Shown piece by piece: positions 6,874 through 11,203 of a stretch of DNA of 64,000 nt. Source of the DNA: an uncultured Gemmatimonadota bacterium. GTDB taxonomy: Bacteria > JAAXHH01. Made by a program: the position numbers and the translations under genes. The DNA is taken from positions 2,336,001 to 2,400,000 of the forward strand of contig OX638340.1 of NCBI GenBank assembly GCA_951812955.1, given 5' to 3'. How positions within the stretch are numbered: the first letter of the stretch is position 1; each line of letters starts with the position of its first letter. The notes under the pieces were generated by a model. That model was given only the letters and a program-made list of their open reading frames with translations. It did no database searches and was not told where the DNA came from.

Positions 6874-8094
6874 CTACAACAGGGTTTCCAGCGTGTTGAC
6901 GAAGGCCTCGTTCTCATCCGGCGTGCCGACGGTCACGCGCAAATACCCCTTCAGCCCCCACCACATGGCGTCGCCGATCCAGACCTTCCGCTCCTGGAGC
7001 GCATTGAACACGCGCTCGGATTCATCCCCGAGCTGAAACAGGACGAAACAGGAATCGCTGGGCGTATACGGGATGCCCAGCCGATCGAAGGCCTTGCCCA
7101 GGTACGCCTTGCCTTCCTCCACCGTCCTGCGGCTCCGCTCGTAATGGGCGTCGTCGTCCAGCGCGGCGATGGCGGCATGCAGACCCAGGTTGCTCGGGGG
7201 ACCGCCCAGGTTGTAGAGCGACAGTTTTCTTCTCAACCGGGGCGAAAGCACCGCGTATCCCACGCGCAGTCCAGCGAGGCCGTACACCTTGGAGAACGTC
7301 CGGGATACGATGACGTTTTCTTGCTCGAGGGCCAGGTATATGGCGTCGCGGTAGTCCGGGTCGGTCGTGTAATCGATATACGCTTCGTCGATGAACACCG
7401 TAACGCGTTCGGGCACGGACCGCACGAAATCCGCCAGTACGTCATGGTCCACCACCGTGCTGGTCGGGTTGTTGGGATTCGTCACGACCACGACCGTCGT
7501 GTTGTCGTTGATCCGCTCGTACATGGCGTCCAGGTTGTGCCGAAGGTCCCGGGTCAGACGTACGTTATTGACCTTGATGTCGGCCCCTTCTTCTTCCTTG
7601 AACCGCCTCCAGACGTCCGCGGTGTCGAAGTAGGCGGGCTGGGCCTGGACCAGCTCCGCCTTGTCCCGGACCGTCGCCAGGCCCACTGCGTGAAGAATCA
7701 TGCTGGAACCCGCGCTGAGCGCCACCCGACGGTTTTTCGTGACCTCTTCCCAGTTGTCCCACGTCGTCTCGGTTACCGGCAAGCCGTGTTTTCGCTCGAG
7801 GGCGTTGATCAGGACTTCCGACGGGTCCGGCATGGAACTCCAGTGGTAACGGTTCACGCCGAACATGCGGGCTGCGACGGCTGCGACGGCCCTGGGGGAC
7901 GGTCCCAGGGGGTTTTCGTTGGACGACAGGTTCACGTAGCCCGGCTCGATGCCGAATCCCTGTATGTCTTCCGGTTTCTTGCCCGAAAGCAGCGCTTGCG
8001 CCATGACCATGGGATCGGCGGCTAAGGCCCCCAAGCCCCCCAGCAGCGATCCCGCAATGAATCCGCGCCGCGTCAGGTTGGATTCTGGTTTCAT
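6874..8094 (-). CDS. class I/II PLP aminotransferase (histidinol-phosphate aminotransferase-like) with a twin-arginine (Tat) signal peptide
   Basis: The ORF starts on TTG at 8127. The likely ATG at 8094 is preceded by GGAGTGGG. The N-terminus MKPESNLTRRGFIAGSLLGGLGALAA is a Tat motif. The PLP-lysine region SRTFSKVYGLAGLRVGY is HisC-like. Confidence 0.7.
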   Translation of the reverse strand: MKPESNLTRRGFIAGSLLGGLGALAADPMVMAQALLSGKKPEDIQGFGIEPGYVNLSSNENPLGPSPRAVAAVAARMFGVNRYHWSSMPDPSEVLINALERKHGLPVTETTWDNWEEVTKNRRVALSAGSSMILHAVGLATVRDKAELVQAQPAYFDTADVWRRFKEEEGADIKVNNVRLTRDLRHNLDAMYERINDNTTVVVVTNPNNPTSTVVDHDVLADFVRSVPERVTVFIDEAYIDYTTDPDYRDAIYLALEQENVIVSRTFSKVYGLAGLRVGYAVLSPRLRRKLSLYNLGGPPSNLGLHAAIAALDDDAHYERSRRTVEEGKAYLGKAFDRLGIPYTPSDSCFVLFQLGDESERVFNALQERKVWIGDAMWWGLKGYLRVTVGTPDENEAFVNTLETLL

Positions 8095-8148
8095 TATATC
8101 CCACTCCCTTAGTTCTGGCCTCTTCAACCAGGTGGTTTCTGTTGGGAT

Positions 8149-9507
8149 TTAAGCCCGTATCTTCTTAACCACTTCCCGGATGCTGTCCCGGAGCAGATCC
8201 AACATGAGGTCGGTCTCTTCCCGGCTGATAACGAGGGGCGGCGCCAGGGCGATCCAGCCAGGGTCGAAACGGGTCAGCAACCCCTTCTCCAGCGCGGTCT
8301 GCCCTACCTGCACGCCGAACTTCAGCGAAGGATCGAAAGGCACGCCAGTCTCGGAATCCTCGACGAATTCAATCCCGGCCAGCAGGCCGCAACCCCGGAT
8401 ATCGCCCACGATCCCCAGTTCCCGGAGGTCCTCCAGGCGCTCGCGGAGGTATGCCCCCTCCTCTCTCGCACGTGTACAGAGATCCCGTTCCTGGATCTCC
8501 GCCAGGTTCGCCAGGCCGGCCGCCGCGGCCAGCGGGTTTCCGCCGAAGGTATGGCCGTGAGAGAACTCGACCTCGTCTTCTTCCCGGCCGAGAAAGGCGG
8601 CGGCGATGGAATCCCGGAAGGCAATCCCGGCCAGGGGCACGTATCCGCTGGACATGCCCTTGCCCATGCACAGGATGTCGGGCGTCGCATCGAAGGTCTG
8701 GGCCGCGAACATGTTGCCCGTGCGGCCGAAACCGGTGATGATCTCATCGTAGATCAGGAGAATCTCGTGCCGGGTGCATATGTCCCTGAGCGTTGAGAGG
8801 TAGCCCGGCGGCGGCATGATGATGCCCCCGGTGTTCCCCACGGGTTCCAGGATGAGCGCCGCGATGGTCTCGGCTCCTTCCAGCTCGACCAGGTCCTCCA
8901 CCGTACGCGCGCAGAAGATCTCGCAATCCGGGAAAGTCTTTTCGTAGGGACATCGGAAACAGGTAGGGGGGTGGACGTGCAGGAAACCGTGCAGCGTGGG
9001 TTCGAACATGGTCTTGCGCCGGCGCGTGCCCGTGGCCGACAGGGCGCCCATCGTCGCGCCGTGGTACCCGTGAAAACGGGAGATCACCTTGAACTTGCCC
9101 GGGTTGCCGGTCTGCCGATGGTACTGCCGCGCCAGCTTCATGGCTGACTCGGTGGCCTCCGAACCGCCGGATAGCAACTTGATCGTGTTCAGGTCCTCCG
9201 GCGTGACTTCCGAGAGCCGCCGGACAAGCTCGATGGCCGGGGGGCTGGTGGCGTGGAGCGGAGGAGCGAAGGCCATGGTGTCCAGCTGCGCCTTGATCGC
9301 CTCGATGATCCGCCGGTTGCCGTGGCCGGCGTTTACGGTGAAGATGCCCGATATGCCGTCCAGGATCCGCCGCCCGTTTACATCCTCGTACCAGACCCCG
9401 TCCGCCTTCCGAATGACGAGGGGATCTTCGATGAAGGTCTCCATCTGGCGCAGGTCGAGGACCAGCCGCCGGAGGGATTCGGGCGCTGTGAGCAGTTGGG
9501 AATCCAT
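8149..9507 (-). CDS. class III aminotransferase (omega-transaminase family)
   Basis: The ORF starts on TTG at 9549, with an internal ATG at 9507 (MDSQLL...). Motifs include ..GGSEATESAMKLA.., ..LILEPV.., DEIITGFGRTG and the PLP-Lys region. Confidence 0.75.
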   Translation of the reverse strand: MDSQLLTAPESLRRLVLDLRQMETFIEDPLVIRKADGVWYEDVNGRRILDGISGIFTVNAGHGNRRIIEAIKAQLDTMAFAPPLHATSPPAIELVRRLSEVTPEDLNTIKLLSGGSEATESAMKLARQYHRQTGNPGKFKVISRFHGYHGATMGALSATGTRRRKTMFEPTLHGFLHVHPPTCFRCPYEKTFPDCEIFCARTVEDLVELEGAETIAALILEPVGNTGGIIMPPPGYLSTLRDICTRHEILLIYDEIITGFGRTGNMFAAQTFDATPDILCMGKGMSSGYVPLAGIAFRDSIAAAFLGREEDEVEFSHGHTFGGNPLAAAAGLANLAEIQERDLCTRAREEGAYLRERLEDLRELGIVGDIRGCGLLAGIEFVEDSETGVPFDPSLKFGVQVGQTALEKGLLTRFDPGWIALAPPLVISREETDLMLDLLRDSIREVVKKIRA

Positions 9508-9576
9508 GGCGCTTCTCTTGAAATCGGGCAGACCAGGGAACGCTTGCAAAGGACGATCGGGGGAGACCGCCCGGCA

Positions 9577-9723
9577 TATGGCCGACGACTAGTACAGCCG
9601 GTCGATCACGACGTCCGCTCCGGAGTATGGCCGACGACTAGTACAGCCGGTCGATCACGACGTCCGCTCCGGAGTATGGCCGACGACTAGTACAGCCGGT
9701 CGATGACGACGTCCGCTCCGGAT
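9577..9723. repeat. 49-bp tandem repeat x3, each copy carrying the 3' end and stop of the upstream gene
   Basis: TATGGCCGACGACTAGTACAGCCGGTCGAT(C/G)ACGACGTCCGCTCCGGAG begins at 9577, 9626 and 9675. Each copy reads ..VVIDRLY-stop. The real stop is at 9687-9689. Confidence 0.85.
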
Positions 9724-10220
9724 TCTCCGATGACCACCCTAGGGATGACCCCTTCCATATCGCCGGCCTGCGGTACGCCGGCGTTTCCGTCCAAGTCGAT
9801 GCGCGCGACAATGGTGACTTCACCGGTGAAAGAAGGGCCCTGGACCGCCTGGTCCGCACCCGTCAGCGTGTACGGCATGGGAAACCGCAGGCTTCTGAAT
9901 CGCTTGACGGCAAGGGGCGGGCCGTTCTCGCCCCGTCTCGCCATGACGTACATGGTCTCCGAGCCTCTGAGCCGTGAGAAAAGTCCCGGCGTGATGTCGA
10001 TGGTTCCCGATACGCTTTCTCCGCTTACCGGGACTGCGGTGGGTTGTCCTTCCTCGAAGCTTCGGCCGGCTATCCGGCTGCCATCCATCGGCTGTTGCCG
10101 TTCCACGAAGGATCTGCCGGACGCCATTCCGCCGTCTTCGGGCAAGGGACGCAGGTTCTGATCGCATCCGCACCAGATCAGCAGGCCCAGCAATATCGAT
10201 TCAAGATGGAATTTGCGCAT
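9687..10220 (-). CDS. secreted hypothetical protein with a signal peptide
   Basis: The likely start is MRKFHLESILLGLLIWCGC at 10220. No family recognised. Confidence 0.4.
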   Translation of the reverse strand: MRKFHLESILLGLLIWCGCDQNLRPLPEDGGMASGRSFVERQQPMDGSRIAGRSFEEGQPTAVPVSGESVSGTIDITPGLFSRLRGSETMYVMARRGENGPPLAVKRFRSLRFPMPYTLTGADQAVQGPSFTGEVTIVARIDLDGNAGVPQAGDMEGVIPRVVIGESGADVVIDRLY

Positions 10221-10570: not shown

Positions 10571-11203
10571 ATGCCGCAGGGTACGATAACCAGGCTGAAC
10601 CACACCAGGGGATACGGATTCATCAACACGCCGGAGAACGAGGACCTGTTTTTTCATCGATCCAATATAATGGATGCGCAGTTTTCTCTATTGCAGGTCG
10701 GCGACCAGGTGACCTATACGGTTCAGTTCACTTCCCGCGGTCCACGGGCCGACCAGGTCCAGGTCGAGAGTCCGTCCGTGAAGCTCCAGGTCAACCTGGC
10801 CGTGAAGGACCTGCGTGTGTCCGCAGCATTCTACACCGAGACCTTCGATTTCAAGGAACTTTCTAACAATCCCGGCTATATCCTCCTTAAACGGAACGAT
10901 CTGATAATCGGATTGAAGACGGACGAACTGCTCTGGCATCCGGACCCTGGGGAACAGCCCGATGCGGCGCTCGTTCGGGGCGTGGGGGTCGAACTGGTCC
11001 TGGAAATCTCGGATATCGGCCAGTTTCACGCAAGGATGCAACAGGCCGGCGTGACCATACACGAACCGTTGAAAGAACAGCCGTGGGGCGCCACGGACTT
11101 CCGCATGCTGGATCCGGACGGGTACTACTGGCGGATCACGTCTCCCCGCGACCGCGATGTCGTCCACGCCGAAGAAGAACCGACGGAAGGTGAACCCGCG
11201 TGA
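10571..11203 (+). CDS. cold-shock domain fused to a glyoxalase/bleomycin-resistance (VOC) domain protein
   Basis: The N-terminus ([27 protein letters not shown]) is a CSD/S1-like fold. The C-terminal half is a VOC-family beta-alpha-beta-beta-beta repeat. The stop overlaps the GTG of the next gene (GTGA at 11200-11203). Confidence 0.6.

Follow-up and report, generated by a model that had tools for sequence, protein, structure and literature searches.

The locus described here raises the question of whether an aminotransferase resembling histidinol-phosphate aminotransferase (HisC) works outside the cytoplasm, and whether a second aminotransferase gene beside it encodes its partner. The locus lies on contig OX638340.1 of assembly GCA_951812955.1, from an uncultured Gemmatimonadota bacterium, within a stretch of 64,000 nucleotides (nt) from position 2,336,001 to 2,400,000 that is referred to as the window. 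Two neighbouring genes on the minus strand are concerned. One encodes a HisC-like enzyme dependent on pyridoxal 5'-phosphate (PLP), and the other encodes a class III (omega-type) aminotransferase. The original prediction, made from the letters of the window, read a twin-arginine translocation (Tat) signal on the HisC-like protein and proposed periplasmic transamination, for example in envelope or aminosugar modification, with the class III enzyme as its pair. We consider it likely that the HisC-like protein is a Tat-exported PLP aminotransferase that is soluble in the periplasm and distinct from HisC, and that its class III neighbour is a cytoplasmic enzyme accompanying it in this lineage only.

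The start codon and the twin-arginine signal

The start of the HisC-like gene at ATG 8094, which was given in the original prediction together with the minus-strand positions of both genes, is supported by a Shine-Dalgarno (SD) site, by the type of codon changes in codons 1-34 and by the unrelated sequence upstream; the stop codon occupies 6874-6876. The GGAG core of the SD-like site (Table 1) was found at the same distance from the ATG in most close orthologues, despite the remaining upstream DNA being unrelated. In comparison with orthologues, codons 1-34 contained no indels, and their differences fell mostly at third positions (for example 5/0/10, 5/0/12 and 6/1/12 at codon positions 1/2/3). 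Synonymous changes outnumbered non-synonymous changes in these codons, and the mature part of the gene showed the same pattern. The mechanical list of open reading frames (ORFs) places the start at TTG 8127. This start was rejected because the 60 nt before ATG 8094 were just 23-43% identical among orthologues with 80-94% protein identity.

The encoded protein begins with MKPESNLTRRGFIAGSLLGGLGALAADPMVMAQA, followed by LLSGKK after the predicted cleavage point. Its N-terminus can be read as MKPESNLT-RR-GFIAGSLLGGLGALAA-DPMVMAQA, with an n-region (MKPESNLT), the motif TRRGFI, a Gly/Ala/Ser-rich h-region of 16 uncharged residues and a c-region (DPMVMAQA) containing an A-x-A site. Tat substrates were recognised by a motif of the S/T-R-R-x-F-L-K type, followed by an h-region of 13 or more uncharged residues and an A-x-A site for cleavage, and the window protein has T8-R-R-G-F-I-A, the 16 uncharged residues and A32-Q-A34 in these places. 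This was the sole convincing Tat-type N-terminus within the 64-kb window. In the AlphaFold2 model, the predicted local distance difference test score (pLDDT) was 38-54 over residues 1-30 and the confident domain began at about residue 40, so the N-terminal extension lies outside the fold.

The signal was also conserved among relatives. All 19 of the family members aligned (36-75% identity) have both R9 and R10, and their n-regions vary in length and sequence. Homologues of 393-426 residues, down to about 36% identity, all carried S/T-R-R-x-F-[ILM] and an h-region, usually with A-Q-A; the exception among these full-length relatives was P0065, which has a Sec-like signal. Ordinary HisC matches of 355-372 residues had no N-terminal extension and began directly at the 'PY.PGKP' arm. 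These alignments uphold the twin-arginine signal of the original prediction.

A different account would be that the arginine pair is fortuitous and that translation begins at Met29 or Met31, so that the product is a conventional HisC or aromatic aminotransferase of the cytoplasm. Initiation at Met31 would produce a protein of 376 residues, near the usual HisC length, one gene caller yielded a truncated relative of 390 residues (P0039), and public records name the protein histidinol-phosphate transaminase. However, the changes in codons 1-34 are those of coding sequence, unlike those in the DNA 5' of 8094, and the arginines, the h-region and the A-x-A site were conserved down to 36% identity. 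A start downstream of the arginines, which the original prediction had allowed for, was not borne out and is unlikely on comparative grounds, because most orthologues carry Leu in place of Met29 and the 56% homologue P0049 lacks Met over this stretch altogether; no SD site precedes Met29 or Met31. The hisC score below its cutoff and the loss of two substrate-binding residues, described in the next section, likewise disagree with an ordinary HisC. We regard this account as most improbable.

Relatives were collected by a scan of one genome per species, which returned 80 loci. The closest loci (80-91% identity) belong to metagenome-assembled genomes labelled Candidatus Latescibacterota or just 'bacterium', and protein records at 87-89% identity are labelled Zixibacteria or Gemmatimonadetes; these labels point to an uncultured lineage of the FCB group as the source. 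In the fetched loci and the window together, 81 HisC-like genes were called, and 52 of them have Tat-type N-termini. The Tat-type members come from Latescibacterota, Gemmatimonadota, Acidobacteriota, Bacteroidota, Planctomycetota, a Gloeobacteraceae cyanobacterium and Proteobacteria (Woeseiaceae, Chromatiaceae), and many of them are Bacteroidota with the form RRxW[LI]K. A tblastn search against plasmids gave ordinary hisC-type matches only, beginning at query residue 27 or later, and no annotated Tat-type relatives among the matches listed.

A neighbour-joining (NJ) tree was built solely on the core domain, from the NENP motif onward. In the placement against HisC that had been proposed as a check, one clade held all cytoplasmic HisC and the exported sequences lay outside it, so export looks ancestral to this exported group and not a recent acquisition. 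The few apparent exceptions were miscalled starts or Sec-type signals, plus one locus (L024) without a signal. Tandem pairs of Tat-type HisC-like paralogues were seen in L016 (7863-9179 and 9224-10438), L017 and L019. Since the L016 pair shares chromosome OZ241920.1 with the 86% orthologue L013, the window lineage holds at least three exported paralogues.

The PLP site and the relation to HisC

The protein matched Pfam PF00155 with an E value of 1.2e-40. Its AlphaFold2 model had a mean pLDDT of 90.4, and the top structures returned by Foldseek were all of the HisC family (3LY1, 3FFH, 4R2N, 3GET and 3P1T), with template modelling (TM) scores of about 0.75-0.89. The E. coli HisC locus L091 served as the reference for the PLP site. 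Besides the Schiff-base lysine (Table 1), N209, D236, Y239, T266, S268, R277 and R386 correspond to N157, D184, Y187, T211, S213, R222 and R335 of E. coli HisC, respectively. Y55 of E. coli HisC, which is supplied there by the partner subunit, is also conserved in the window protein. Since these PLP-site residues are intact, the window enzyme should be catalytically competent; it should also be dimeric like its relatives. The description of the protein as a HisC-like PLP enzyme therefore agrees with the profile match, the intact PLP site and the structural matches.

The window enzyme is probably not HisC, because it falls below the cutoff of the HisC equivalog TIGR01141 and lacks the lid tyrosine and the equivalent of Arg322. 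TIGR01141 was the highest-scoring NCBIfam model for the protein, with 207.4 bits against a cutoff of 276.55. In E. coli HisC, Tyr20 is the lid residue that binds substrate, and Arg322 is the second arginine that binds the phosphate or the distal carboxylate; R335 likewise binds carboxylate or phosphate. The equivalent of the lid residue Tyr20 is Leu in the window protein. This column, which fell in a gap region of the 100-sequence alignment and was scored instead in a smaller alignment (A4), held Tyr in every cytoplasmic sequence and a hydrophobic residue in the exported members aligned. The equivalent of Arg322 is Gly, and in the 100-sequence alignment Arg was present in 29 of 31 cytoplasmic versus 28 of 68 exported sequences. 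In the subfamily I-beta enzymes of Mycobacterium tuberculosis, the lid tyrosine sweeps onto the ligand and interacts with it, and Arg322 and Arg330 of mArAT together bind the dicarboxylate (PMC4703992). As a tentative reading, the missing Arg322 hints at a co-substrate other than glutamate or 2-oxoglutarate bound in the usual way.

No his genes were found near the HisC-like gene, whose neighbours are the class III aminotransferase, NUDIX, GH32 and Ig_CycH lipoprotein genes. Histidinol phosphate is cytoplasmic, so an exported enzyme would be unable to serve histidine synthesis. Public records label this protein family as histidinol-phosphate transaminase or as a generic class I/II aminotransferase. 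The former naming of such exported enzymes is probably a systematic misannotation; for an enzyme that is exported and lacks both HisC substrate-binding residues, the HisC name is very probably wrong.

Table 1. Positions, within the window, of the two aminotransferase genes and of features read in and between them.
Feature	Position	Strand	Details
HisC-like (class I/II, subfamily I-beta, fold type I) PLP aminotransferase gene	6874..8094	-	ORF and translation; 406 residues; stop codon included
Codon of Lys269, PLP Schiff-base lysine (motif RTFSKVYGLAGLR)	7288..7290	-	aligns with E. coli HisC Lys214
Predicted Tat signal peptide, codons 1-34	7993..8094	-	RR invariance, TIGR01409, codon-type conservation, low pLDDT
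Twin arginines, codons 9-10 (CGG CGC)	8065..8070	-	R9 and R10 are invariant alignment columns
Spacer between the class III gene and the HisC-like gene	8095..8148		54 nt, from coordinates
SD-like AAGGGAG	8104..8110	-	9 nt 5' of ATG 8094, read from sequence
Class III (omega-type) aminotransferase gene	8149..9507	-	452 residues; PF00202, E 3.8e-103

The class III aminotransferase and gene neighbourhoods

The class III aminotransferase has no signal peptide, and its orthologues are also 452 residues long with the same N-terminus. Its best NCBIfam models were PRK06541, PRK07678 and AptA, all under their cutoffs. No minus-strand terminator-like or promoter-like sites were found in the 54-nt spacer by a promoter and terminator scan, which was uninformative in that terminator-like sites occurred at chance level in the scanned region. 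Co-transcription of the two genes is possible, since the spacer has no minus-strand terminator-like site.

The neighbourhood was annotated through the 94% orthologue P0009. The order Ig_CycH lipoprotein, class III aminotransferase, Tat-type aminotransferase, NUDIX, GH32 and zinc-dependent alcohol dehydrogenase (Zn-ADH) was kept in this orthologue, and the genes immediately around the aminotransferase kept their order in the 90% and 80% orthologues. Adjacency of the two aminotransferases was found only in orthologues of at least 80% identity (L003, L012, L014). In a 66% homologue, they were separated by 3.6 kb and four genes, namely two MoCF_biosynth genes, a PhyH gene on the opposite strand and a HATPase/response-regulator gene. 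The class III gene was not found near P0049, P0051, P0055, P0060, P0061 and most other Tat-type loci examined. The 56% Latescibacterota homologue (L004) had no class III neighbour, and a sulfatase, a nucleotidyl-transferase and a second HisC-like paralogue were located nearby. Because adjacency is lost at 66% identity and the class III gene is absent further out, the comparison of loci argues for lineage-specific synteny and not for a conserved functional unit.

The original prediction was right that an omega-transaminase gene lies next to the HisC-like gene on the same strand; the partnership it drew from this was not sustained. As a functional unit, the two enzymes might form a relay of amino groups between two compartments, or the class III enzyme might be co-exported by hitchhiking with the Tat protein. 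The common strand, the 54-nt distance, the missing terminator-like site and the retention of adjacency at 80-94% identity would fit such a unit, as would a class III gene within 5 kb in the Woeseiaceae locus L018. However, four unrelated genes, one of them on the opposite strand, stand between the two in the 66% homologue, and most of the other Tat-type loci examined have no class III gene nearby. Both aminotransferase classes are known as homodimers, and we know of no heteromer of a class I/II HisC-like and a class III aminotransferase, which also counts against a unit of this kind. It seems quite unlikely. L018 was dropped as support for a conserved pair, since its class III gene lies 4.7 kb away and its product has a different N-terminus; this protein probably belongs to another subfamily.

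The neighbours of other Tat-type members were varied. The longest-ORF gene caller was crude, missing aminotransferase genes in the high-GC loci L011, L013 and L001 and giving mis-starts in L062 and L075, so neighbour counts are approximate. An apparent operon of a Gluconate_2-dh3 small subunit, a GMC flavoprotein dehydrogenase and a Tat-type aminotransferase was seen in L001 (7588-11281) and L007 (5586-9272). The aminotransferases of these two loci are 42-43% identical to the window protein, the dehydrogenase genes lie directly upstream, and the arrangement suggests periplasmic oxidation coupled to transamination. L008 and L010, and L018 in part, had the order Peptidase M24, Peptidase M28, aminotransferase and NHL protein. 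In L030 (6319-7908), L049 and L088, the gene directly upstream of the Tat-type aminotransferase encodes a flavin amine oxidase (PF01593) that itself bears a Tat-type signal (containing VSRRQFLIKSGLL), and a Hint-domain protein is encoded downstream. SusC/SusD genes were found near the Tat-type aminotransferase in four loci, and an M1 peptidase tagged for the type IX secretion system (T9SS) was located beside it in L034 and L036.

A multi-pass protein of about 370 residues with 10 transmembrane segments was encoded directly downstream in 11 Bacteroidota loci (L037, L040, L041, L046, L051, L057, L067, L068, L070 at 9008-10156, L072 and L074). It had no Pfam match and a faint match to the auxin efflux carrier (AEC) model TIGR00946 (20.9 bits), and this AEC-like membrane protein is a candidate transporter of a co-substrate or product. 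Taken across relatives, the peptidases, amine oxidase, GMC dehydrogenase and SusC/D suggest scavenging or catabolism.

These neighbourhoods also bear on whether the exported enzyme might aminate an envelope or sugar substrate, such as a keto-sugar made in the periplasm. The pairing of Gluconate_2-dh3 and GMC is a dehydrogenase pairing of the Tat-exported kind, and its position before the gene in L001 and L007 would suit oxidation followed by transamination. The sulfatase and nucleotidyl-transferase beside the gene in L004 would suit this substrate too. In the window, however, no envelope or nucleotide-sugar genes flank the HisC-like gene, and the envelope or aminosugar modification named in the original prediction found no backing there. 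The neighbours are NUDIX, GH32 and Zn-ADH genes, whose products have no signals, and the Ig_CycH lipoprotein gene. Sugar aminotransferases belong to the DegT family PF01041, which did not match the window protein, and other relatives adjoin peptidases M24, M28 and M1 and the amine oxidase. Characterised I-beta enzymes, moreover, use alpha-amino acids or histidinol phosphate (PMC4703992). We give a sugar or envelope substrate little chance. Catabolism or scavenging of amino compounds in the periplasm, peptide-derived or other, is favoured over envelope modification or histidine synthesis, because the commonest family neighbours are peptidases, amine oxidase, SusC/D and periplasmic dehydrogenase.

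For a Tat-exported periplasmic transaminase, the following route is envisaged. The precursor would fold, form a homodimer and bind PLP in the cytoplasm. TatABC would then recognise the twin-arginine signal, and the holoenzyme would cross the inner membrane. Signal peptidase I would probably cut after A-Q-A34, leaving a new N-terminus at the start of the lid arm. The mature enzyme would act as a soluble periplasmic transaminase with a ping-pong reaction between an amino compound and a keto acid. The group moved would most likely be an alpha-amino group, exchanged between a keto acid and an amino compound of the periplasm (an amino acid, free or peptide-bound), and the second half-reaction would regenerate PLP in the periplasm. 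The adjacent class III aminotransferase would stay in the cytoplasm and share the neighbourhood within this lineage only.

Several points weigh against this reading. In the Tat profile check, the curated model TIGR01409 gave a borderline 16.7 bits, equal to its cutoff of 16.7, but Pfam TAT_signal (PF10518) gave 13.1 bits against a cutoff of 22.7. The profile evidence for Tat is borderline, and it is therefore conservation among relatives that carries the argument. A basic Sec-avoidance residue is missing from the c-region, and an uncleaved membrane anchor instead of a cleaved signal is possible. The NJ tree was a quick distance tree without support values and without sequences of PtaA, the periplasmic transaminase described below. 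No conserved genomic context pointing to a substrate was found across relatives, and the window clade itself has no diagnostic neighbour. The regeneration of PLP from pyridoxamine 5'-phosphate (PMP) and the source of the periplasmic keto or amino co-substrate are both left open in the literature on PtaA (PMC6206403).

A wider and more tentative proposal, which we find possible but doubtful, is that the window protein is part of a large, phylum-spanning radiation of exported HisC-like enzymes engaged in general periplasmic amino-group transfer that scavenges nitrogen and carbon. The lid tyrosine and the 'arginine switch' of Arg322 are missing from many exported members, and several paralogues occur on single chromosomes. 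If the proposal is true, the scavenged substrates would be peptides, amines or oxidised sugars; the M1/M24/M28 peptidases, the Tat-exported amine oxidase, GMC/Gluconate_2-dh3 and the AEC-like transporter would supply or remove co-substrates; and most 'histidinol-phosphate transaminase' entries for such enzymes would be wrong.

Other features were noted around the two genes. A 49-bp unit occurs in three tandem copies with 98% identity at 9577-9722. The third copy covers the stop codon and the last 12 or so codons of the Ig_CycH lipoprotein gene (9687-10220, minus strand), and the other two fall in the spacer before the class III gene. The core of the repeat was not found in 90 related loci, and recent duplication by slippage, or an error of assembly, could account for the triple repeat. 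The Ig_CycH-domain protein, encoded upstream of the class III gene, resembles a lipoprotein (LLGLLIWCGC, then DQN), and its orthologues show IWSGC or VYAC at the lipoprotein site. Its true start probably lies about 29 codons downstream of the listed ORF start (GTG 10307). At 10571-11203 on the plus strand, a protein of 210 residues has an N-terminal cold-shock domain fused to a glyoxalase/VOC domain. CSD and Glyoxalase Pfam matches were seen in orthologues, and the fusion was kept in the loci of the 94% and 66% relatives (L003, L005); this domain combination is unusual.

Comparison with known exported and cytoplasmic aminotransferases

PtaA (periplasmic transaminase A) of Pseudomonas fluorescens turns the glutamate of pyoverdine into its alpha-keto form and is exported through Tat with bound PLP; its homologues also occur in non-pyoverdine producers, and its genes usually lie outside the biosynthetic cluster (PMC6206403). 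PA2531 of Pseudomonas aeruginosa, a PtaA homologue annotated as an aminotransferase, is an experimentally validated Tat substrate (PMC6085387). Periplasmic transamination, as first proposed for the window protein, remains the best reading and has a direct precedent in PtaA. Export of a PLP aminotransferase is not without precedent, since PtaA and PA2531 are known.

Like PtaA and PA2531, the window protein is a HisC-like class I/II PLP transaminase with an N-terminal twin-arginine signal, and the PtaA model NF051461 was among its top five NCBIfam matches. Unlike PtaA, it scored 156.1 bits against the equivalog cutoff of 500 bits, and just residues 48-401 were aligned; the relation between the two is one of hidden Markov model (HMM) scores only. 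Set beside PtaA in this comparison, the window clade also shows, when aligned with HisC, insertions of about 25 and about 6 residues. No pyoverdine, nonribosomal peptide synthetase (NRPS), siderophore or TonB-receptor genes were called within 10 kb on either side in the locus of the 94% orthologue. Given the score far below the cutoff, the absence of a pyoverdine context and the insertions, the substrate is therefore not expected to be pyoverdine glutamate.

The window enzyme might still perform tailoring of the PtaA kind, converting an N-terminal or side-chain amino acid of an exported siderophore or peptide into its keto form in the periplasm. PtaA is the sole characterised member and has homologues in non-pyoverdine producers; since PtaA genes usually lie outside the cluster, the missing cluster context is uninformative. 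The low PtaA score and the absence of NRPS, siderophore and TonB-receptor genes around the orthologue nevertheless count against tailoring, and the several paralogues of the lineage, including tandem pairs, are a better fit to nutrient processing. Tailoring is thus an unlikely function for the window enzyme, and the scavenging role remains preferred.

The model PRK09105 (NF006580, 'pyridoxal phosphate-dependent aminotransferase') includes a Tat signal, and residues 5-403 of the window protein aligned with its profile positions 3-368. The score was 191.3 bits against a cutoff of 444 bits, just below the hisC score. Eight other Tat-type relatives were scanned, and each had PRK09105 as its best NCBIfam model, with matches mostly starting at profile positions 2-6, within the signal. 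None of the eight reached the 444-bit cutoff, and PtaA (NF051461) ranked second to fifth among their models. The best structural match of the window protein by TM-score and root-mean-square deviation (rmsd) was 3LY1 from Pectobacterium (TM 0.77/0.89, rmsd 2.4 A). Among solved structures it is likewise the nearest to a Tat-type member from Proteobacteria, and it may belong to PRK09105.

Exported HisC-like enzymes span Bacteroidota, Acidobacteriota, Gemmatimonadota, Latescibacterota, Planctomycetota and others, with one member functionally characterised. Judging from their neighbours, which vary yet are consistently periplasmic or catabolic, nutrient processing may involve periplasmic transamination more often than the lone Pseudomonas example implies. 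Pathway reconstructions in uncultured lineages may wrongly count such genes as hisC. The part that deserves follow-up is that exported transaminases are widespread and almost entirely uncharacterised.

With HisC (TIGR01141; E. coli 1FG3) and the I-beta aromatic aminotransferase of M. tuberculosis (Rv3772, 4R2N), the window protein shares the fold, the PLP-binding residues, Y55 and R335. It differs from HisC in its export signal, its score below the cutoff, Leu for Tyr20, Gly for Arg322 and the lack of his neighbours. PvdN belongs to a different PLP family and was not among the matches for the window protein. As a PLP enzyme that Tat exports in the folded state along with its cofactor, it offers a second precedent (PMC6206403; PMC6085387). 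It resembles the window protein as a Tat-borne PLP enzyme, in its case of pyoverdine tailoring, and differs in performing a decarboxylating conversion of glutamate to succinamide and not a transamination (PMC6206403). A Tat-exported, PLP-loaded HisC-like transaminase is not new and opens no new category, as PtaA has been characterised and curated NCBIfam families exist for both PtaA and PRK09105. Judged by its profile scores, the window protein is a divergent exported HisC-like transaminase under the cutoffs of both families.

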